This document shows, one piece after another, positions 2,772 to 26,888 of a stretch of DNA of 64,000 bases. The position numbers and the translations under genes are program-made. Positions within the stretch are counted from its first letter, which is position 1, and each line of letters begins with the position of its first letter. The stretch lies in IMG/VR virus record IMGVR_UViG_3300031992_000020; one strand, written 5' to 3'. The notes under the pieces are model-generated. The model was given only the letters and a program-made list of their open reading frames with translations. It was not told the origin of the DNA and did not search any database. Origin of the DNA: a virus. Lineage: Duplodnaviria > Heunggongvirae > Uroviricota > Caudoviricetes.

Positions 2772-4091
2772 GTGCCTAAACATGTCAGTATTCCTATTGA
2801 TGGAACCGTAGAATTGCTTAATGTAGCTCCAATGGAAGATAATCCATTGCTAAGTCATTGCGATATTAAGGTTTGCTATTTAGGTGAAAATCGTAATCAC
2901 AGTGTGATTAATCGTGAATCTGCTATTAAGATGGCAAAGACTTTACATGGATGTCCTATTGCGGGTTTTTATGACAATAAGCAAGAAGATTTTTCTGGGC
3001 ATAACCGTAGTATTGAGGTTGGCGATGGAAAATTCCGCATTGTTGATAAAACCAAAGCCTATGGATTTGTTGATTCTAGTTCTAAGATATGGTTCCAAGA
3101 TTTTCTTGATGATAATCAAGTAAAGCGGACATACTTATTAACAGAAGGTTATTTATGGACAACTTTATATCCAGAGTCTAAAAGAATTTTAGAGCATGGA
3201 AATAATTAGTCTATGGAACTTAATGAAGAAAATTTAGATGGCTCGTGGACATTTGACGATAAGGGGTTACCTAAATTTTTTATAATTAATGAAGCAATGA
3301 TACAAAAGCTTTGTATTCTTGGAGAAGACGTCGAGCCTTGTTTCGAGGGCGCGGGTATTGCAGCACAATTCTCCTTTGACGGAGACTTCAAGAACAAACT
3401 ATTCTCTCTTATGGAGGATATTAAATCTGCTTTGAACAAAGGAGGATTTACTTCAATGGAAGAAAATAAGATCGTTGATCCTACTTTGGAAGATGAGGTT
3501 AATCCAGAACTCGACTTTAAGAAGAAGGAAGAAGACGAGAAGAAGGAAAATCCATTCCCTCCAAAGGATGACGAAGAAAAAGATACCCCTGATGAGGGCA
3601 AAGATGATAAAGGCGAATCTGCTGAAAAAGAAGAAGATGAGGATGAGAAGAAGAAAGTTCCTGCAAAGCATTCTTTGACTGATGAGGATATTCTTGAATC
3701 TGAACTTTATAAGAATCTTGCTGTTGAGTTCGCTCAGTTACAGAAAGATTTTGATGCTTTGAAGGCAGAGGTTGAGCCTCTTCGCGCATTTAAGGTTGAA
3801 TCTGATCGTAAAGCAAAAGAAGAAATGATTAATAGTTTCTATATGCTTTCCGATGAAGATAAGAAAGATTGCATTGATAATATTGATACTTATAGTCTTG
3901 ATGATATCGAAGCAAAGCTTTCAATTATTTGTGTTCGTAACAAGGTTTCTTTTAACCTTGAAGACGATAAAAAAGAAACAGAAGTAGACAAGAAAGATCC
4001 ACTTCTCTTCTCATTGGATAACAATGATGATGGTGATAGCGCTCCAGCTTGGATTAAGGCTGTAAGAGCGACCGCCAAAGAATTAAACTAA
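2772..4091 (+). CDS. Prohead protease / scaffold fusion (~439 aa; code 15)
   Basis: ORFs 2772..3209 and 3213..4091 are in the same frame and joined by one TAG (GNN-Q-SMEL). The N-terminal part has CYLGENRN and TLHGCPIAG motifs, and the C-terminal part is acidic and coiled-coil-like. It precedes the capsid genes. Confidence 0.75.
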
Positions 4092-13274: not shown

Positions 13275-13298
13275 ATAAGAGAGAAAGGAGTTTGAGAT

Positions 13299-16200
13299 AT
13301 GGCTGCGAATACAGTTGTTAAAGCAACAGTGCAAATTAATGCCGATACTAGTAGTGCATAGAAACAAATAAAAGATATGCAACAAAGTGTTCAAAAAATT
13401 GCGTCTTTATCTCCGCTCAAATTTGAATCTACTGAATTAAAACAAGGTATAGCAAGTGCGCGAGATTTATAGAAAGCATTAAATGCTGCCGCAAGTGTTA
13501 ATATGGGCAAATTAGATCTTACTGCATTTAATAGATCTTTAAAATAGTCTAATACTAATTTAAGCACTATTGCTGATAATTTGCGTTCTTTTGGTGCAAC
13601 AGGCGCAGCCGCTTTTGATAAAGTTGCTGATGGTTTAACCACTTTATAGAACAATAGCGTAACTGTTAATGGCGCTATTGGAAATTTATTAATTAATTTA
13701 AAGAAAACTGCTCAATGGCAAATTTCTTCTACATTAATTCATAAGTTTGTTGGTAAATTACAAGAAGCAGTTGGATATGCAAAAGATATGAATGAATCTT
13801 TGAACAATATCCGCACTGTTACGCAAATGTCTACTGGTGAACTCGCATTATTTGCAGAAAATGCTCAAAAAGCTGCTAAAAATTTAAGTTCATCTACTCT
13901 TGCTTTTTCTGATGCTGCTTTGATTTATTTCCAACAGGGCGATAAGATGACTACTGCTATGGAAAAAGCAGAGATTACGATGAAAGCTGCTGCTATTTCT
14001 TTTAATTCTAGCGCAAAAGATATGTCTGAATACTTAACAGCTATTTGGAATTCTTATCAAGTTGGAGAAGAAGAGATGGAGCATTATGTTGATATCATGG
14101 CTAACTTAGGTGCTAACACTGCAACTAGCATGGAAGAAATTTCTACTGCATTGCGTAAGGTTGCGGCAACAGCTAATAACGTTGGCGTTGGTATGGAACA
14201 AATGTCATCTATTATTGCAACATCTGCTAGTGTTACTCGTCAAAGTGCAGAAATCATTGGTACTTCTTGGAATACAATTTTAAGTCGTATTGGTGGTTTA
14301 AAACTTGGTGAAACACTTGAAGATGGTGTTGATCTTAATAAATATTCTACTGCATTACAAGCTATTGGTGTTAATGTATTAGATGTTTCTGGCGAATTGC
14401 GTGATATGGGAAAAGTAGTCGATGAAATTGGTGAGAAATGGTCTTCTATGTCCAAGGCTCAGCAATCTGCATTGGCGCAAACCGTTGGTGGCGTACGTCA
14501 GTATACTTAGATGATGGCATTCTTTGATAACTATGATACTTATAAAATTAATTTAGAGTTTGCCGAAGGATCTGATGGCGCTCTTGAAAAGCAATTTAGC
14601 ACTTGGGAACAATCTTGGGAAGCAGCAACTGGTCGTATGAAGAATGCTTGGCAAGGATTGTATAGTGAGATTATTGATGATCAGGCTTTTATTGGAGTAA
14701 TTGATGGCTTATCTGAAGTTATAAATAAAGTTACTGAATTAATTCAAGCTATGGGCGGTATTGGTCCTGTTTTGACCACTATTGGCGGTATGTTTATGGC
14801 ATATTTCGGCGGTAGTGGAGCAATCAGTGCTGGAATTAGTAAAATTGCTAACACTTTTGCTATTATGACTGGTACTGCTAACAAATAGAATATTGCAACA
14901 GCTACGACATTAGCAAAAGGTTATGATACTGCTGCGGCAAATGCTTCTGGCGCAGATGCTGATATTTTAAGATCTAAAGCGTCTTTGGCAAGAGGTTCTG
15001 CAGCTTATTTGAAAAATTCTAATCGTATGTCAGAAGCTGATAAACAAGCGTATGAAGCTGCACGTCAAAATGTTGCATTACAACAGCAAAATTTAAGGGA
15101 AGCACAAGCTAATAAAAATCAAGCTGACGCTCGTGTGGCGGCTTTAAGAAATCAAACAGGTAATAGCGCAACTAGAGAATCTAATAGATTAAATTATTTT
15201 GATGGTAATGTTAACAATGCTTATAATCGTGCTATAAATGCAGGCATTAGTTCTGCTACTTCTACTGGTAAATCTGATTATGCTACTCAATTATAGGAGC
15301 AAGCAGCCAAAGTAAGACAAGCAAATAAAACATTAGAAGAAGCATTAAAATCTGGTAACTAGTCTGCTATTAGTGCGGCTAAAGCTGGATATAGCCAAGC
15401 TACTGCAGAAGCTTCCAATGTAGGTAAAGGTATTGTTGAAGGCTTAACGCAAGAAATTGCTGAAGTCCAAAACAAGCAACAACAATTAACTAATTTATTA
15501 GAAGATCCAGAGCATTATATGACAGATGGTCAATTCGATGCTGAAAAAGCTCGAGCATCTTATAATGAGATTGTTGGGCCAGAAGCCGCAATAGACGCAG
15601 ATGCAGGTAAATTTACTTCTTTTGATAAGATGAAAGAAACTATCACTTCTTCTGTAGAAGGCATGGATGATTTAATAGATAAATATGGCGAAATTGGACA
15701 AGCAAGTGAAACTTTAATTGATGCAAATGGTGAAGTTGGTCAAGAGTTTGGTGAAATGGCTCGTCAAGCTGTTGAAGCTGGAGACGAATTAAGTCATGCA
15801 GAAGATCAACTAGACGAAGCTAGCAAAGGTGTTGAGGAAGCTGGGAATAAATTACCAGGCATTTCTGATAGTCTTGGTGGCTTAGCTGGTGGCATGATGC
15901 AATTAACTGGCGCTATTACAATGGTATCTAGCGCATTTAATACACTTGGTGACGAAGGCGCCAGTGGCGGTCAAAAAGCTATGGCCGTTTTAAGTTTACT
16001 TATTGGAGTTATGACTGGCGTAAGTGCAGCTCAAACGATTTTGAATAATGCTAAGAGTTTAGGCGTAGCAATTACAAAAAAAGCTACTGCCGCAGAAGCA
16101 GCACATAGCACTATTTTTAGTAAATTAATTGTTAAATTATTTGCGCACAGTGCTGCACAAGCAGCAAATACAACAGCAACGAATGTTAATACGACTGCTA

Positions 16201-19200
16201 CTATTGCTAATAAATTAGCTCGTTTAGGTTTAATTGGTGCTGCTATTGCATTAGGTGCGGCTTTGGTTGCATTAACAGCAATTTTAATTAGCGAAGCAAG
16301 TTAGACTAGTAATTATAATAAGCAAATGGCAAAATTACATACTGAGATGGATCAATTAACTGAGCGTGCTGATAAACTTCGTGAAAAGCAATAGGCCAAT
16401 GTAGATGTTATGAAAAAGTTGAATGATGTAGTTAATGCTACTGATCTTACTTTTGAAGAACAATTAAATCAAATTAATGAATTAACTTCTGCTTATGGTA
16501 TTCAAGCTACTGCTCTTGACGTATTAAGTGGTAATTATGGCGAGTTAGCTGAATCTATGAATGCAGCTTTATTGGCAGAACAGCAAGATATTAGTGGCCA
16601 ATTAGAAGATATTGAAGCTGAGCAACAAGAAAATGTCAGACAACAAATTGAATTAACTGATCGTTAGAATTTAGGATTCTGGGATCGTGTGAATTTGTCT
16701 ATTAAAGATTTCCAAGGCACAATGATTAGTGCTTTGGGCACGCTTGGCAAATATGCTTTATATGCTATTGCTACAATCGTTGATACAATTATTGATTTAC
16801 CTGAGACAATTGCAAATGTGTTTGTAGACTTAATTAATGCTTTATTGACTTCTATTAATGCAGCTCTCGGCTGGCTTGGTGTCAATATTGGTATGCTTGA
16901 ACATGTTGATTTTGGTTTCAGTGAAGCAGCCGGAATTGGTGATACAATTCGTGGTTGGGGCGATGATATTGAAAAAGCTGGCCAAGAAGCAAAAGCGGCA
17001 AGTGAAAGAGCTGCCGAAGCTGCTGTTAAGGCGCATAGCGCATTTAATAAACTTGGTGACTCTATTGAAATGTCTGCCGAAGAAAGCGAAAAATTAAGCA
17101 AATTCTATGAACAAAATAAAGATGCTTTAAATGCCGCTGGATTTATTCAAGGTTCAGATGGACGTTTACAAGTTGATCAAAATAAAGAACAAGATTATGG
17201 AGCTTTATATAACTTATTGTCTCAAGCTGGGGCTGATAAGTGGGGTTCTGTAAATAGTTATAGCTCTAATTTGATGGGATATTTGCGCACAGTAGATGCT
17301 GATCAATTAGGCTAGACTCAGATACAAGTGCGGCAATCACAGCTTGCTGAATAGATGTATAGCACTTATGCTGACTCTATTGATGCGCTTAATTTAAAGC
17401 AAACAACTCATGATTTAAAAGATATTCATAGTTTAATTAAACAAATTAATGATGAGAATGGCGGAACACTTACTGATTCTGATAAGAGCTTTTTAGCTCA
17501 AAATATTGGACAATTCGCTCATTGGTCTGATGCATATCAAGAATATGAAAGTGCTATCAATCTCAGTGCTAAAATAAGTAAATTTGATGTTAATTCTGAT
17601 TTATCAAAAGAACAAATTACTGATGCTATTATTGGCGCAGTTGGCAAAAAGATTGGCGCGAATGGTGAAGAGCTTACTATTGATACATTATTAAGAGTAA
17701 GACCTTCTGCAATCCATATTGATCCAACAACATCTGAAGTAACAATTGACGAAGATGCTTTGGCTATTGCTACTGCAAATGCTGATGTTGAAAAAGCAGC
17801 ATAGACTAAAATGGATATTGATTCTATTCGTCAAATCGACAAAGGCAACACTGTTGATTATGATACTTATCTAGCTATTAAGGACACAGGCATATTCTCT
17901 GATGAGGAACTTGCTCGTTATACTGGTTCTAACAAAGCTGAAAGAGCTGTTATGCTCAAACAAAAAGAATAGGAAGCAATTAATGCTCAAATTATAGCAG
18001 ACTAGCAATTAGTCGAAATTGGTAATCGTGAAATTACAACTTTAACAGGTAAAGTTGAAGAATTTTATGAGAATTTACGTAATGGTTTATTACAAGATGA
18101 AGATGAATTAAAGAAAGCACATCCTGAATTATTCGAAGGGGACGAAATGCTTTCTGGTAATGCTCTTTATCAAAAAATGGCAAATAGACAAGCGCAATTA
18201 CAAAATTTAAATACTGCATATAAACAATTTGCTGGTTCTTATAGTGGATCTTCTTGGGACGATATTACTTCTTGGGAAGATTATGGTGCAAGTTTACGTT
18301 CTACATTAAGTAAAGATCAGCAACAAACTATTTTGGATTCTTTAGGAGTTTCTTCTTGGGCTCAAATTACGGAAGACCAAATGAAACAAATTTTTGAAAA
18401 ATTCAATAGTGGCGAATATAACTTCTGGGCACAAAATAATACTGACCTTGCTTGGTACAATGCTTAGCTTGAAGAAGGTAAAGTATTAGTTGGCGAATTA
18501 GGTTCTGCACAAGCCACAGTTGCCGCTGCAAATAATAGATTAGATGCAAGTAAATGGGCAGCTGTTTCACAAGAAATTGAAGTTGCTAAAACTAATGCAG
18601 AAGCATTCAAGAATACTATTGGTAAAATGGGTTCTGCATCTGCCGCAGATTTAGCTCAACTAAATGAAGTCTTTAAAGATATGGGCATCAATGTTTATGA
18701 CCTATATCAAAAGATGGATAGTGCGCAATGGGATGAATTTGTTACCACTTAGGCTTTGGCTTATTATGACAAATTAATTCAAAAATATCAAGAAGTTGGC
18801 GATGAATTGAGTGTTCTTAAAGCAAAAGAAGAACGCGATAATGTCATGTCTGCTTATGCAAAAAATGCTTCTTCTCGTTTGTCTAAACAAATTGAGAATA
18901 TGAAGTCTGAATGGCAAGATGTAACAACTGCTGCATCTGCGGCAAATTCTGAAATTAGTAAGTTAATTACTGATCCTGACAAATATGCGGACATGACTAA
19001 TGCTGGTATGAATACATTAATTGAAAATCTTCAAAAGGTTGGATATAGTGCGGAAGAGGCTAAAAAGTTAGTTGATAAATTATATGATGCTTCTACATCA
19101 GAAGAAGAACGTATTAAAACTGCAACATTCGCATCTGCTAATGCGCAACTTGCTGAATTAACACAATTATATAAAGAAAAGCAAGAATTAGAAACTGGTA

Positions 19201-22200
19201 TTAAGGTTACATCATATGATTTGTCAGAAGTTGAGCCTTTACCTATTGCTGCAAAAATCGAAAAAGAGAATACTGAAATAGAAACACCAGAAGCCGCGAT
19301 GTCTGTTACAGATGTTTCTTTGGATTTTGATAAGTCTAAACTTAATTATACTAAAGGTAAAGTATATTATACTAATGGCATAAACCAAATTCCATTAAGT
19401 GATGTTCATTATGACAAAGCAACTGCTACATATACTTATGGCGAAAATAATATTCCTATTGATGATCTTACTATTGAAGAAGGCAAGGTTTATTATACTT
19501 AGGGCGAAAATAAAATTGATGCTTCTAAAGTAACGATTAAAGATGGCAAAGTTATTTACACTAATCCTACTACTGGTGCGGAATGGGATACTCAATTAAC
19601 TCCTATTACAGAAGTTGAAGGTACAGTTACATATGTTGAGCCTAAAACAGGTACAAATTGGAATATAGACGATTTACGTCAAATCGCCGATGGTACTATT
19701 ACTTATGAGTCTGCTGAGACTGGTGCTAAATGGGATGTTTCTCAATTAAAGAAACTAGAAGATGGTACAGTTGTATATCATGATGTAACTACTAATCAAG
19801 ACTTTGATGTTAATAAAATTAAAGTCACTCAACTTGAAAATGGAACTGTTCAATTTACTAATATTGAAACTGGTGAAACTTGGGAAGCGGAAGAACAACA
19901 AGTTAAACAGTTAAGTGATGGTACTATTTTAGTTCAAAAGATTGACAAAACAGCTGTTGAAGGTGAAAATGCACCAAAAGTAGGTGTAGTAGCTGTTGTT
20001 GAAAAAGCTCCAGAAGTAACAGTAACTACTAATTATACAGAAGGCGAAAATGCTGATCTTATTAAAGATAGATAGATTGTAGTTGATGTGGCTTACAAAA
20101 CGGCAAAGGACGCTTTGTATCAGCAGCAAAGAGACAAAATTTATAGTAATTTGTCAGTACAAGATTATAATACTGCTGCGCAGTTTACTTGGAACAATGT
20201 AAATAATGGATCTTTAAATGAAGGCGGCGGTTGGGATTGGCTAACTGGCGATTCTAGCTGGGCTTCTGATAAGGGTAAAATTGCAGGTATGTTGTCTCTT
20301 GCTGAGACAATACGTGAGTCTGAATTTTCTGATATGTCATATACTGCTCAATGGAATGTAGCAAATTATTTAGTAGCATTGCGGAGAGCAGCGAAATCTA
20401 GCAACTCTGAGATTAGAAGTATTGCTAAATTTATTATTTCTGGTTTACCAGTTGGTATGCAAGAAGCAATTGCTGATGAAGACTGGAACGGTGGAGTAGA
20501 AGGGTTAGGTGCTCATGTTGAATCTGCTATCGCCGACGAAGTTGAAACTCACTCTCCTTCTGAAATGACTAAACGTATTGGTCGTTATGTTATTGAAGGT
20601 TTAGCCGTTGGTATGCAAGAAGGAATCGCTGAGCAAGATTGGAGCGGCACAGTCGGTGGTCTTGGAGAACTTATTGAAACTGCATTAAAAGCTGAATTAA
20701 CCGATACGTCCAAAGGTACGGCTGCATTATGGTCAGAACAAATTACCAAAGCTGGTGACAAAGCTTATACTGAGGCTATGAGTAAATGGACTACTGAACA
20801 TAATGGTAGCCAAATGGCCGAAGGTGTAAGACAAGCAGAAGCTGCAAGGGCCCAAGCACAAGCCGATAAAGCAGCTGAATTAACATAGCAATTTACCGAA
20901 GACTATGTTAACGGCGGATACTTAATGGACAAAAATACATCTGCATATCAAAAGAGCATTTATGGTGCAGCATTTTAGAGTGCAATCGACAAAGGTTACA
21001 CCATTGGCTCTGACAAATTCTTTGAATATGTAGAAAACGAAGTTAATAAATCAAGCAAAAATATTCAAGATAAAATTGAAAGCACTTGGGCAAGCGTTAA
21101 AGATACATTAGCTAGCGGTGCGTTAGCTATGTATAAAAATGAAGAAGCTTTGGCGCAAAAGACTTATGAAACATGGGCCACAGCATATGAAAAAATTGCA
21201 CAAGCACGTCTTGGATTGGTAGAAGGCAAATCAATTGCTGATACTCTTGCTGGCGATATTGAAGGTCAGTAGGCAATTATTCAGCAATTATTATCTACCG
21301 GTGAGTTTAAAACTATTCAAGAAGTTATGGCATTTTTACGCAATCCAGAAGCGGATATGTCTAAACTTAAGATTGGTGGATTTGCTGATAGTGAATGGTC
21401 AAAGACTGGTAATCAAAGATTCTTTAATTGGGAAAATGGTCATATTAGAGATACTTCTTATGATGAATATGAAGCTCGTATAAGACAAGAAGCAGAGAAA
21501 GCTGCTACAACTAATATCCAAGAATTTTGGACTTCTAAAGGTGCGAATGGCGAAAAAAGTTGGTAGGATCGTCTTGATCGTTACAATGAGCTTATGAGTC
21601 AAAGTTCTAGAACTTAGGATGAAAATAAAGAATTAGCAGAATTAAATAGTCAATTAGGAATATTTTTAGAAAAAGGCGTAATTCAGCAAGATTAGAATGG
21701 CAAATATTATGTTGATTTTGATAGTTTGGATAGCAATGAAATGCATGATGCAGTATATGACGCAGTCTATAATGCATTCCACATGGACCAAGCCGCGTTT
21801 AATGCTTTATATGCGGAAGCTATTGCTCGTGAAAGCGATGCAGTACAAACTGAAACAAAAAATGTTTCTGATCAAGGCGAAAAATATTTAAATCAAAATG
21901 CAACAGACCAAGAAATTATTAAAAAAGTTCGTGATGCTAAATTAACTGATGCGGATGCTGATCTAGAAACTATTTTAGATGAGTCTGAGCTTAAACGTTA
22001 TAATGAAATTATGGGCGACACCGAGCCCACTGTTGCTAATTTAAATAGCAAACTTACTGAATTAGAAACCAATGCACGTAGTTGTGCATCTGGTGTGCAA
22101 GAGCTTGTTGGAGCATTAAATAATGGTACTGTTGATGGCGGCTATGTTGATGCAGAAGGCAAAGTCCATGCAACTGTTTCAACTGTTGGAGAACGTGTAA

Positions 22201-25200
22201 ATGTTTATAAAGGTGATACAGAAGCTTTTGAGCATTGGCAAAATGAAGGCTATGTAACAGAATCCGAAGATGCTGATGGCACTATTCATATGAAAAAAAT
22301 AATTGTAGATGAAGTTGAAGTGCCAGAAGGAACTGAGGGTATTAAAACAGGTAATGAAACAGTCGATAGCGCAGCAGAAGGCGAAGATATTGATTGGCAA
22401 AGATATCTAGAAGATGTAGAATCATATGCTAATGCAGTAAATATGGCAAAAGATGATTTCAAAGATTATATTGAAGTCATCAAAGAAGCGGGTGGAGATT
22501 CAAGAAGTCTAAAAGAAATGTCTGATGAAGAACGTCGTTCTTTATTAGAATTGGCTAAAACCGCGGTTGATGTGTCAAATGCTTGGAATAGTTTAACAAG
22601 CAGTCAAAAAGATAATATTTCAATGATTAAAAATGGCGAAAAAGCAAATGTTAATTATGCATCTGGGCTCAAATCTGTCATGCAAAATGTTAAAACAATT
22701 TTTGGTAACAGTAAAGCTGTTACGGCAGATTTCGTAGAAGAAAACATTGATTTAATTGAAGATATGTCAAATGGTGTCGAAGGTGCAGCAGAAAAAGTTG
22801 AAGAGAAAGTGCTTCGCGCAGAAGCAGCCTTAGACGGTTGGGATTATGATAAAAAAATTCAAGTTGATTTTGATGTTGATGGCGATGGATTAAAAGATCA
22901 ACTCTCTACTATTGGTGAGGTTTTAAATAATTTTGGCGATCAACATGCAAATGAACCAGTTGGTTTTGTTGCTACTATTGATAATACACCTGCAATTGCT
23001 GGATTGAATGAATTACTATCTGCTGGTGAAATGACCGCAGAAGAAATGACAGCTGCATTAGCAACTATTGGCTGGGAGCCAGAAATTGAATATTAGCCAG
23101 TAACATTTGAACAAGCTTAGAAGCATAGAACTTCTGTATATACTGAAGATAATTTTGGTAATTATGTTCAAGTTAATGGTGAAGAACAATTAAATGGATC
23201 TACTCAATATTATATTCCAGTAATTAAGTCAGCGAAAAAAACTGGCACAGGTGCTTCTGGTACACGTCCAACCACTAACACCGGATCAAGTGGCGGCGGT
23301 GGAGGCGGAGGATCTAAAACCACCAAAGATAAAAAGAATTATAGTGATGAAATTGAACGTTATCATGAGATAACTGAACAATTAGGAATCATTAGTCGTC
23401 AATTAACTAAGATTGATAAACAAAAAGCTGCCGCATGGGGCAAAGGTAAACTTGATGCAATTAACAAAGAAATTGAAGCATTAAATAATGAAGCAGATGC
23501 GTATGCTCGATATGCTGATGAAGCTGCTGATTATATGGCATCAGATCGCGCAGACCTTACTGCAAATGGCGCATTGTTTAATGATGATGGATCTATTGCT
23601 AATTATGAACAATTAATGCAGCAATGGATTGATGAATACAACGATGCTGTTGAAGCATTTAATAATTCTGATCAAACCGACGCTGACCAAGATGCATTAG
23701 ATGATGCAGAAGATCTATACGAAAAACGCAAAAAGATGATCGAAAATTATGAAGCAGCATATCAAAAATATCAAGATCAAATTAATAACTATCTTGAAAC
23801 TTTGAATAAATTATCTGCGGCAAGACTTGAAAAAATTACTTATAAAGTAGAACTTCAAGTTGAGCTCGATGAGTCTGATCGTAAAATTATTGATTATTTC
23901 AACAAAAAGATTGAAAGCACTCTTGAAAAGCAAAGCGAGCGCATGAGCAATTATGTTAAGTCTCATAAATCCTATGAAGATGATGCTAGATCATATGCTG
24001 ACGCTATTGCTAAACTTGAAGAAGAACATCAAAAGTGGATTGATTCAAATGGTACTGAGGGTATTAATGATAGCGATTACGCAGCTACATTGTTAGATTA
24101 TCGTAATAAATTAGCCCAAGTATTAAGCGATATGTATGAAAATGAACAAAAAATTATGCAAATTTACTCTGATGCGGTTGACCTCGCAAATGAGAAAGTC
24201 CAAGAGCAGACTAATATTATCCAGCATTCTATTGATATGATGTCTAATTATGTAGAAATTTTAGGACTCATGGGTCGTAAAGTTGATTATGACGAACTTG
24301 AAAAATTCTATGATACACAGTATCAGTCTTATCTTGATATGATTGAAGTTAACAAAGCTTTAAGAGATCAATATAAGCAAGAGATGGAATACTATGAAGC
24401 AAAAATGGCTGCAGGTCAAGAACTATCCGAAGAAGAGCAAGAACAATATAAGAAAGCGACTGAGGCTTATATTGATGCTGAAAATACCTTAGTGTCTAAT
24501 ACCAAGGCCGCATTAACAGCAATTCAAGATGCACATAAAGCCCATATTCAAGCTATTATGGAAGATTTGAGTGAAGTAAATGCGGGCGTGCATTCTAATA
24601 TTCAGGATGTATCTGATGCATATGGCTATTGGAATGAACAACGTGCTAATTACTTAGCTACTGGTAAACAAATTTACGAAGTAAATAAGTTAAATCGTAA
24701 GATTGAAAGTTCTATGGCGGACTCTGCTACTAAGGCATCAAAAGAACGACTTGCCGCACTCGAAGAGGAAATTAAACTTAAATCTAAGAGTGGTAAATTG
24801 AGTGAATATCAAATCAAGCAATTTGAATTACAATATGAACTCGCTCTTGCATTGTAGGGAATTGAAGAAGCCCAAGACGCTAAATCTACTGTGCGCTTAG
24901 TGCGTGATGAAAACGGTGGTTATGGTTATCAATATACTGCTGACCAAGATAATTTAGATGAAGCTGAACAAAATTACGAAGATGTTCTTGAAAAAATTCG
25001 TGAATTAACTGAAACCACTGCTGACCAAATGGCGCAAGGATATATTAATGCACGTATTACAATGGAGCAAAAATTAGCAGAATTAGACGAGTCAGATTTT
25101 GCTACTCACGAAGAATATCTTGCAAAGCGTAATGAGATTATTGCTCATTACACTAGTCAAATGAATTATTATGCGCAACAATATAGCCTTGTTGCCGATG

Positions 25201-26855
25201 ATATGCAATAGAATTTAAATGCTTTAAATGAGCATTATGGTGATGAAAATATTACGATCGCACAAGGCATGAATGAACAAATTAGCGGTGAAATGTCTGA
25301 TATTATTGCTAATACAGACGAATATGGAGATGCAATCAAGACAGCGATGGATGAAACAGACAAAGAGAATGACGAATATAAACAAAAGATTGATGAAGTG
25401 GCACAAGCAAGTGGTTTAGATTATGCTTCTATGATTAATTCTTTGGGAGATTTTGAAACTGCTTCTGGCAAAGCGAATGTTGCAGCAATGCAAGTAATTG
25501 ATACATTAGATAGTGAATTAGATGAAATCCACGATGTTACCGATGAGTGGTTAGATCATAAAGCTCAGATCGAAGATGTTATTGATTCTTATGAAGATTT
25601 AATTGATAAACTTGGTGAGACTCTTGATCTATTAGCTGATCTTGATGCTGATGATAATACTCCTTCCAACGCGCCTGACGCGCCTTCTAGCGGTGGCGGC
25701 GATGGCGACGGAAGTGGCGGTGGCAATGGAGACTCTGGCGGCGGCGGAGGTTCTGACGATGATGGAGGCTCAGGTGGCAATACCGGTGGAAGTGGAGGCG
25801 GTGGTAATTCACAGCAACCATCATCAGGTAGACAATTTTTAAAGTATATTTATCAAGACAGCGGCGTTAGCCAGCATTATAAAATTTGTCAATATACAGA
25901 TATGTCTACTAGCCCAGTTGGTTATGAGTCACATCAGTTCAGTGGTAATAGATGCTCTTTGTGTGGTCATGTAAAATCATCAGGTGGTGGATGCTTCGTT
26001 GCAGGCACTCCAATTATCATGGCTGATTTTAGCACAAAGAAAATTGAAGACATTGTAGTAGGTGATGAAGTTATTGCATATGATAATATAAATAAAGAAT
26101 TTACTACTAAACGAGTAAATGATACTTATATTCATCATAATACCGCAGCATTGATTTTGGTTAAATTGTCTAATGGGGTCGAACTTAGAATGACGCCAAG
26201 CCATCCATTGTTATCAACACATGGATGGAAATCACGTAATTTGATTTTGTCTTTATTAGAGCATCATGTGTTAGCATCTTGGTTGAATGTTGGTGATGAA
26301 ATTATTTGCTTCAATGGCAATGCTATTGTTGAAGAAATTATTGATTTAGCCGTTCCAGAGAATTTTGATACTTATAACTTGGCTATTGATGATTTACATA
26401 CATATATGGTTGAAGGGGTAGTTGTTCATAATATCATGGTTTCCGCAGCTAAGTATGCATCTGGTGGTTTGATTGATTATACTGGGCCTGCTTGGGTTGA
26501 TGGATCTTATTCCAAGCCTGAATTGGTTTTGAATAATGATGATACTGCAAACTTACTTGCGGCAGTTCAGATGTTACGTGATATGACACCACGTATTTTT
26601 GAAATCATGTCTACAAATGTAACTCATATGATGCATGCTCTTGATTATCAACATGCATCAACTAATTTGTCTGATATTTATGCACGTGAACGTGACAAAG
26701 ATTTGCTTGAACAAAATGTGCATATTACTGCTGAGTTCCCAAGCGTTACTGACCATAACGAAATTGAACAAGCATTTAATGATCTTATTAATCAAACAGC
26801 ACAGTATGTCAATAATTATGAAGCATATAGACACAATTTTGAATCATTGATCTAA
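13299..26855 (+). CDS. Giant tape measure protein (~4,518 aa; code 15) with C-terminal zinc motif and Hint domain
   Basis: ATG after AAAGGAG. The 15 same-frame ORF-track pieces from 13788 to 25269 are joined only by TAGs (about 29 by hand count). A TP901-type TMP core lies at ~13790-14650, followed by Ala/Glu-rich helical sequence, an HSPS motif and a late YASGG motif. Ends in TAA. Confidence 0.88.
25992..26432 (+). other. Hint (intein/BIL-like) domain within the tape measure protein, 147 aa
   Basis: Block A C1-FVAGT, block B RMTPSHP (TxxH), blocks F/G TYNLAIDDLHTYMVEGVVVHN. The next residue is Ile. No endonuclease is present. Confidence 0.88.
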
Positions 26856-26859
26856 TAAT

Positions 26860-26888
26860 AAGGTGGGGCTTTATGCCCCACCTTTTTT
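26860..26888 (+). terminator. Rho-independent terminator after the tape measure gene
   Basis: aaggtggggc-tttat-gccccacctt followed by tttt. Confidence 0.8.

Follow-up and report, generated by a model that had tools for sequence, protein, structure and literature searches.

Tape measure protein processing and known Hint domains

How phage tape measure proteins (TMPs) are cut near their C-terminus has been an open question since the 1970s. Such cuts occur in both lambda and T5. In lambda the cut falls within a Gly-rich region and the fragment stays on the hub, while T5 pb2 is converted into pb2* and the 92-residue pb2C, which is seated in the pb3 cup. For the lambda TMP, a 2025 paper on Ur-lambda states that both the catalyst and the exact site of the cut are unknown. 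Hint-fold elements have been listed in actinobacteriophage TMPs, where they are canonical inteins of class 1 or class 3 (bioRxiv 10.1101/2025.01.02.630785). Among other Hint domains, the type-A BILs (Amitai 2003; Dassa 2004; C. thermocellum structure PDB 2lwy; reviewed in PMC4031507) combine an N-terminal thioester with C-terminal cleavage via Asn cyclisation, and can ligate through the freed alpha-amine, although cleavage products dominate (PMC4031507).

Here we analyzed a window of 64,000 nucleotides from a tailed phage genome (IMG/VR record IMGVR_UViG_3300031992_000020), to which all coordinates refer unless another contig is named; the features described in the window lie on the plus strand. 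The C-terminal part of the phage TMP carries a Hint domain that resembles type-A BILs in its Cys1, Thr-x-x-His and His-Asn residues, in the absence of a +1 nucleophile and of an endonuclease, in its size (~140-150 aa) and in the variable host region around it. However, described BILs belong to bacterial secreted or hypervariable proteins, whereas the host here is a phage TMP with a fixed linker-Hint-tail position, and activity is predicted. With BIL2 of Tetrahymena BUBL (6y75/6tmm), for which zinc is relevant to catalysis (PMC8616854), the domain shares its fold and a Gly-Gly N-flank, but the two are 24% identical, the flanks here are not ubiquitin-like and ligation to Lys would be hypothetical. 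As in pretoxin HINT proteins (PF07591), the domain lies just upstream of a C-terminal module predicted to be released; in contrast to them, this module is not a toxin but the TMP tail, which is also present in TMPs without a Hint. The actinobacteriophage TMP inteins are likewise Hint-fold elements within a TMP but they splice, whereas the present Hint lacks a +1 nucleophile and sits in a linker. Finally, lambda and T5 also release a C-terminal TMP fragment (~90-130 residues, in lambda from a cut in a Gly-rich region), and the layout here would yield one of 140 aa behind a Gly-rich linker; lambda gpH and T5 pb2 have no Hint, and the likeness to gpHC and pb2C is one of layout.

A tape measure gene with TAG as a sense codon

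The TMP gene occupies 13299-26855 (4,518 codons) and forms a single frame only if TAG is read as sense, since it includes 30 in-frame TAGs, the final one at codon 3971; under table 11 it falls into many ORFs. Across the long frames, the total rises from 41 kb under table 11 to 63 kb with TAG as sense, and 13296-26852 becomes a single open frame of 4,519 codons. Residues 190-398 of the product match PF10145 PhageMin_Tail (2.5e-28), and its first 540 residues match the TMP PHROGs 4211 and 34405, with PHROG 4211 at 4.7e-48. Genes for the portal and for virion structural proteins lie upstream. By these matches and by its position in the virion module, the product is a phage tape measure protein. 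Table-11 annotation breaks such TMPs into pieces and masks their architecture. The gene ends in a triple TAA stop (26853-26861), and directly after it the sequence contains a GC-rich hairpin and T-run resembling an intrinsic terminator (26860-26888).

The phage genome of 149,432 bp encodes 19 tRNAs clustered within its first 11 kb, one of which has a CUA anticodon. This tRNA (G000:C1:3515-3606, outside the window) measures 92 nt, has a short D-loop and an extra arm of unusual length, and is unlike the phage's own tRNA-Gln and tRNA-Ser; Gln at TAG is therefore an assumption in the present translations. With 4,518 aa the TMP has an exceptional length. Many of the matches are relatives of 3,000-4,200 aa, and very long TMPs are a trait of the phage group around this phage. 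The table-11 ORF at 25269-26855 (P0001, 528 aa) contains the linker, His2Cys2 module, Hint and tail described below and has no TAG, so that these findings are independent of the genetic code.

Layout of the TMP C-terminus and identity of the Hint domain

The TMP C-terminus begins with a Gly/Ser/Asp-rich low-complexity linker (about 25641-25829), with a GC content of 0.60 compared with 0.36 in the whole gene. It leads into a His2Cys2 mini-module (25836-25973), a putative zinc knuckle delineated from a 5-sequence alignment and an AlphaFold2 model, and then into a Ser/Gly spacer ending in Gly-Gly-Gly (25974-25991), which gives the -1 Gly of the N-terminal scissile bond. The 147-aa type-A BIL/Hint domain that follows (25992-26432) was delineated with Pfam, phmmer, AlphaFold2 and Foldseek. 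Its Cys1 (25992-25994), Thr-x-x-His (Thr-Pro-Ser-His, 26193-26204) and terminal His-Asn (26427-26432) are evident from the sequence, as is the non-nucleophilic Ile at +1 (26433-26435). This Ile opens the conserved C-terminal tail of 140 aa (26433-26852; stop 26853-26855), which aligns with the final ~100 positions of the TMP PHROGs 34405 and 4211 and contains the motifs Lys-Tyr-Ala-Ser-Gly-Gly, Thr-Gly-Pro, Pro-Glu-x-Val-Leu-Asn and Ala-Glu-Phe-Pro in this order. The tail presumably corresponds to the hub-docking fragment.

The best Pfam match of the Hint is PF07591 PT-HINT (E 3.5e-11; 44.0 bits with a gathering cut-off of 27.7). PF01079 Hint matches at 6e-08 and Intein_splicing at 8.9e-07, the latter under its cut-off. 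In a phmmer comparison with the PDB the top match was the C. thermocellum type-A BIL 2lwy (4e-10). AlphaFold2, given a 19-sequence family alignment, modeled the domain with pLDDT 90-98 across its length, and the first five Foldseek ranks were taken by BIL2 (6y75/6tmm; best E 2.7e-12, target TM 0.85-0.88, 24% identity) and 2lwy (target TM 0.87, 32% identity), above all mini-inteins. The domain thus combines Cys1, Thr-x-x-His, His-Asn and a BIL-like predicted fold with the absence of Cys, Ser or Thr at +1, and an endonuclease domain is absent from its 147 aa. On all of these sequence and modeled-fold criteria it is a type-A BIL and not a canonical intein. A class-1 intein would have Cys, Ser or Thr at +1, where Ile stands here (26433-26435), and would occupy a conserved insertion site whose two flanks adjoin each other in intein-less homologues, whereas here the C-flank is conserved and the N-flank is a variable linker or module. 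In a pretoxin HINT protein a toxin would follow; the module after this Hint is the TMP tail (PHROGs 34405/4211), and a Pfam search of the region downstream of the Hint matched no toxin family. The whole 149-kb genome was searched for a second Hint copy and has this one only.

These results confirm the sequence features of the initial annotation, which had described a flexible linker, a His/Cys cluster, a complete 147-aa Hint, Ile and a 140-aa tail, all of which were found where it had placed them, and they support its interpretation in part. Its assignment of the module to the TMP C-terminus is borne out by the PF10145 and PHROG matches obtained with TAG as sense. Likewise, its view of the Hint as a BIL-type domain without a +1 nucleophile is upheld by sequence, phmmer and Foldseek, and the catalytic residues are intact both here and in every complete relative.

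Recurrence among related phages

An exhaustive profile search over 1.84 billion representatives yielded 18,097 matches at E <= 0.001 and was used for all recurrence counts; a word-indexed homologue search gave 5 matches only. Among the best 150 of the 18,097 matches, a Hint directly precedes the conserved TMP tail motif in ~20 cluster representatives, of which five are proteins of 3,129-3,899 aa. Cys1, Thr, His and His-Asn are kept in 13/13 complete pre-tail Hints at pairwise identities of 33-85%, and the -1 residue is Gly in 12/13. At +1, the 20 representatives from the same best 150 matches have Ala (11), Ile (3), Met (2), Ser (2), Lys (1) or Thr (1), that is, a non-nucleophile in 17/20. The spacer from His-Asn to the Gly-Gly motif ranges from 5 to 18 residues among the Hint- and tail-bearing relatives. 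A second member (P0003), which is 41% identical, is encoded downstream of tube, YomO and PhageMin_Tail genes on its contig. The Hint-before-tail layout is not unique to this phage and recurs patchily in many uncultured phages.

Among annotated phages, tblastn revealed no isolate with a Hint plus tail; the Hint-only matches comprised genuine inteins of helicase or terminase genes together with a 432-aa hypothetical protein of a Ruminococcus phage (H11), which lies outside the tail module. A full-text literature search returned nothing on BIL or Hint domains before a TMP C-terminus. The initial annotation had named a sporadic distribution with Cys, Ser or Thr at +1 as the mark of a decayed selfish intein. 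The distribution in homologs is indeed sporadic, but Cys, Ser or Thr occupies +1 in only 3/20 relatives, which contradicts a canonical intein that has decayed.

A variable slot with a probable old resident

The conserved tail is also found in Hint-less TMPs, including P0005, P0007, L001, L002 and several proteins of 3,000-3,900 aa. The closest colinear TMP is the Hint-less one of L001, which is 30% identical across the 975 aa that lead up to the linker and 48-50% identical in the tail; the sole segment in which the two differ lies between linker and tail. This slot holds the His2Cys2 module and Hint in the present phage, an unrelated ~70-aa domain in L001 and a different ~55-aa segment in L002. 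Because the content of this slot differs among TMPs, the Hint occupies a variable site for cargo instead of a conserved host site. Hint-bearing members are interleaved with Hint-less ones on a maximum-likelihood tree of 32 tails, which implies 9 changes, and well-supported branches force at least 4 of these. The figure of 9 changes is no better than that for shuffled labels, on a tree that is weak because the tail alignment has 117 columns. This patchiness, together with the absence of a Hint from L001, indicates that TMPs of this type can do without the Hint.

Recent acquisition of the Hint was considered and rejected, since its GC3 (0.231) equals that of the gene (0.206-0.243 in the remainder). 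Pairwise identities of Hints and tails co-vary (Mantel r 0.55, p 0.0004), and there is no pair with near-identical Hints in divergent tails. Co-divergence and matching codon composition point to an old resident and not a recent invader, and we lean towards a history of old residence with repeated loss or cassette exchange.

The His2Cys2 module

The four ligand codons of the module (His 25875-25877, His 25932-25934, Cys 25953-25955 and Cys 25962-25964) correspond to His203, His222, Cys229 and Cys232 of P0001. In the alignment of five Hint-bearing relatives they form the only invariant columns (His14, His33, Cys40 and Cys43), while the Cys of 'KIC' and the last His of 'CGH' are not conserved among relatives. 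With this dedicated 5-sequence alignment, AlphaFold2 predicted three strands and a CxxC turn at a mean pLDDT of 88.8; with the first alignment, which was poor in the His/Cys segment, pLDDT there was ~33. Foldseek of the module against the PDB gave nothing below E = 1, and even with E values of up to 10 Pfam had no usable match to the module or to the tail. Among the best 150 of the 18,097 matches, the module is present in ~5/20 Hint-bearing relatives and missing from ~15/20, and its linker to the Hint varies from 6 to ~50 residues. On alignment and model, it is probably a small, putatively metal-binding cargo module and not a regulator of the Hint.

The 'zinc motif' of the initial annotation thus stands in part: a His/Cys cluster is present at 25875-25970, but the conserved ligand set is limited to His, His, Cys and Cys. 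Its suggestion that this cluster exerts zinc or redox control was not upheld, as the cluster belongs to a separate mini-domain that occurs in ~5/20 relatives and at a variable distance from the Hint.

Cys-rich low-complexity repeats (Cys-x3-Cys; Gly/Thr/Ser/Lys-rich) were observed in P0003 (residues ~245-305), P0089, P0047 and P0111. They replace or flank the His2Cys2 module directly upstream of the Hint/tail.

The wider Hint family

A tree of 252 Hint domains places the pre-tail Hints in a 57-member clade (support 0.80) that otherwise consists mostly of Hints at the very C-terminal end of their proteins. For instance, same-clade Hints cap tail-fibre-like or Tal-like proteins after a Ser/Gly linker (P0130, P0055 and P0044), with only 4-16 residues beyond His-Asn, and a further end-cap Hint (P0047, L006:3001-4023) adjoins a fibre gene; in these examples the C-flank is just 6-7 residues. 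This end-cap layout is like that of Hedgehog or self-cleaving chaperone domains. With so few residues after His-Asn, only N-terminal cleavage would be possible in end-cap Hints, and cleavage would therefore be the common activity of the clade.

Among the matches listed, the nearest relative of the window's Hint is P0032 (L004:589-1272), a 227-aa non-TMP protein from another TAG-recoded phage, in which a coiled coil, a Cys-rich stretch, Gly-Gly-Gly, the Hint and 9 residues follow one another. The idea that P0032 and P0047 are TMPs truncated at a TAG was rejected because the caller had already read TAG as Gln. The C-flanks of both are genuinely short, and no TMP tail is encoded by the ORF that follows P0032.

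Other arrangements of Hints were also observed. Giant TMPs (P0013, P0030, P0058, P0062, P0079, P0093 and P0122) have one to three internal Hints that always end His-Asn|Lys; Lys-Gly-Gly, a basic linker and a Glu-Arg-Tyr-His motif come after the Hints. At the equivalent point, the TMP of the window has a poly-Gly linker, a basic stretch and Glu-Arg-Tyr-His-Glu-Ile around 23280-23370 (TMP residues ~3329-3360), with no Hint there. Tandem arrays of 3-7 intact Hints occur in the metagenomic proteins P0010, P0014, P0015, P0016, P0020 and P0024, with His-Asn|Lys-Gly-Gly-Cys-Phe joints from head to tail; across tandem arrays, +1 is Lys or Arg in 75/98 junctions. A sub-group of C-terminal Hints (P0049, P0063, P0066-P0069, P0076, P0077, P0082, P0088, P0105, P0115 and P0152) starts with Cys-Cys (-1 Cys) and ends in His-Asn|Ala-x-Cys-Pro/Lys, and the block-B Thr is replaced by Arg in 21/59 end-cap Hints. 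The Cys-Cys and block-B Arg end-cap Hints may be a variant with disulfide or thioester chemistry.

Proposed self-excision and alternative explanations

The analysis shows the identity of the domain, its predicted fold, intact catalytic residues, position and recurrence, and points to long residence. We infer an active Hint, a predominance of cleavage over ligation and docking of the tail fragment in the hub. Our preferred reading, which we hold with slightly better than even confidence, is that the Hint excises itself and leaves the ruler and the tail fragment as separate chains. In this scheme Cys4232 would attack the carbonyl of Gly4231 (N-to-S acyl shift), and the resulting thioester would be hydrolyzed, while Asn4378 would cyclise to a succinimide and break the Asn4378-Ile4379 bond. 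The products would be a ruler ending in Gly-Gly-Gly, the free Hint and the free 140-aa C-terminal fragment, which would remain docked in the tail-tip hub. By analogy, this would be a self-catalyzed equivalent of the conversion of lambda gpH into gpH* and gpHC and of T5 pb2 into pb2* and pb2C. As Ile is unable to accept the acyl group, canonical splicing is impossible, and since cleavage is dominant in other type-A BILs, cleavage products are expected to dominate here. A change from Ala to Ser or Thr takes a single base. The lasting Ala at +1 in relatives thus suggests that efficient, canonical splicing has not been selected.

The outcome for the TMP could nevertheless be a single chain. In Hint-less relatives the ruler and tail are one chain at synthesis, so that re-ligation would also give a working product, and a self-removing passenger with no role in the tail is a credible reading, though one we consider considerably less probable than self-excision into separate chains. 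Here Asn cyclisation would come first, the alpha-amine of Ile would then attack the Gly thioester, and the BIL would be excised with its flanks re-joined into a continuous TMP like that of the Hint-less relatives. Such a passenger would be in keeping with the patchy distribution of Hints on the tail tree, with the colinear Hint-less orthologue in L001 and with the many contexts in which Hints of this clade are met (in Gly-rich linkers, at the ends of proteins and in tandem arrays with as many as 7 copies), and splicing of type-A BILs without a +1 nucleophile is documented (PMC4031507). However, cleavage dominates in the type-A BILs assayed (PMC4031507), those clade members that end their proteins lack a partner for splicing, and +1 shows no drift to Cys, Ser or Thr, the efficient way to splice, with non-nucleophiles in 17/20. 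Moreover, the co-divergence of Hints and tails, with no near-identical Hints in divergent tails, gives no sign of active spread, and a His-Asn to Gly-Gly spacer of 5-18 residues does not define a single fixed site. It is much less probable still that the element is a canonical class-1 mini-intein splicing through a +1 nucleophile, or a recently decayed one. Canonical inteins are reported in actinophage TMPs (bioRxiv 10.1101/2025.01.02.630785) and Pfam Intein_splicing does match (8.9e-07, though below cut-off), but +1 is Ile here and a non-nucleophile in 17/20 relatives, the N-flank is a variable linker instead of a conserved host site, matches to BIL structures are better than those to inteins, and the catalytic residues are not decayed; we regard this as the most improbable of the explanations.

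Two further readings would keep the Hint, or its chemistry, in the virion. With BUBL BIL2 as top structural match, a domain that forms Lys isopeptide bonds and is zinc-activated (PMC8616854), the Hint could be a built-in ligase whose Gly thioester moves the ruler C-terminus onto a Lys epsilon-amine, be it of the tail fragment, of another TMP chain or of a hub protein, possibly under zinc gating, and so produces a covalent tail-tip cross-link. The ubiquitin-like Gly-Gly end of the N-flank (12/13), the Lys that almost every family member has among the first 10 residues past His-Asn and the His2Cys2 module upstream of the Hint here would fit such a ligase. Nonetheless we judge it improbable: identity to BIL2 is only 24%, the same Lys precedes the Gly-Gly motif in Hint-less tails too and is not Hint-specific, and the His2Cys2 module is missing from ~15/20 relatives. 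Slightly more doubtful is an inactive or structural Hint that the mature TMP retains and that might, for instance, plug the baseplate cavity or act as a spacer in it. Some TMPs do bear globular enzymatic domains, as with the metallopeptidase motif of T5 pb2, but retention of the catalytic residues in 13/13 complete Hints over deep divergence is unexpected for a purely structural role.

Apart from the chemistry, it can be asked whether the Hint serves the phage. That it is a functional maturation device and not a passenger, timing or chemically directing how ruler and hub fragment come apart as the tail is assembled, is a reading that we consider unlikely. In a bolder version, the Gly thioester may cross-link the ruler to a tail-tip Lys, with zinc control by the His2Cys2 module in some lineages.

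Implications

TMPs that carry a predicted autoprocessing domain where lambda and T5 cut theirs offer a system in which cleavage sites can be predicted and point mutants (C1A and N147A) are simple. They would allow a test of whether tail assembly or DNA delivery depends on separating the ruler from the hub fragment. The range of BILs is widened from bacterial secreted proteins to phage virion proteins, namely TMP linkers, pre-tail slots and tail-fibre ends. If the Hint does act as a maturation device, it would be the first defined catalyst of tape-measure processing, and if the Lys cross-linking version is true, it would possibly be an ATP-independent ligase inside a virion.
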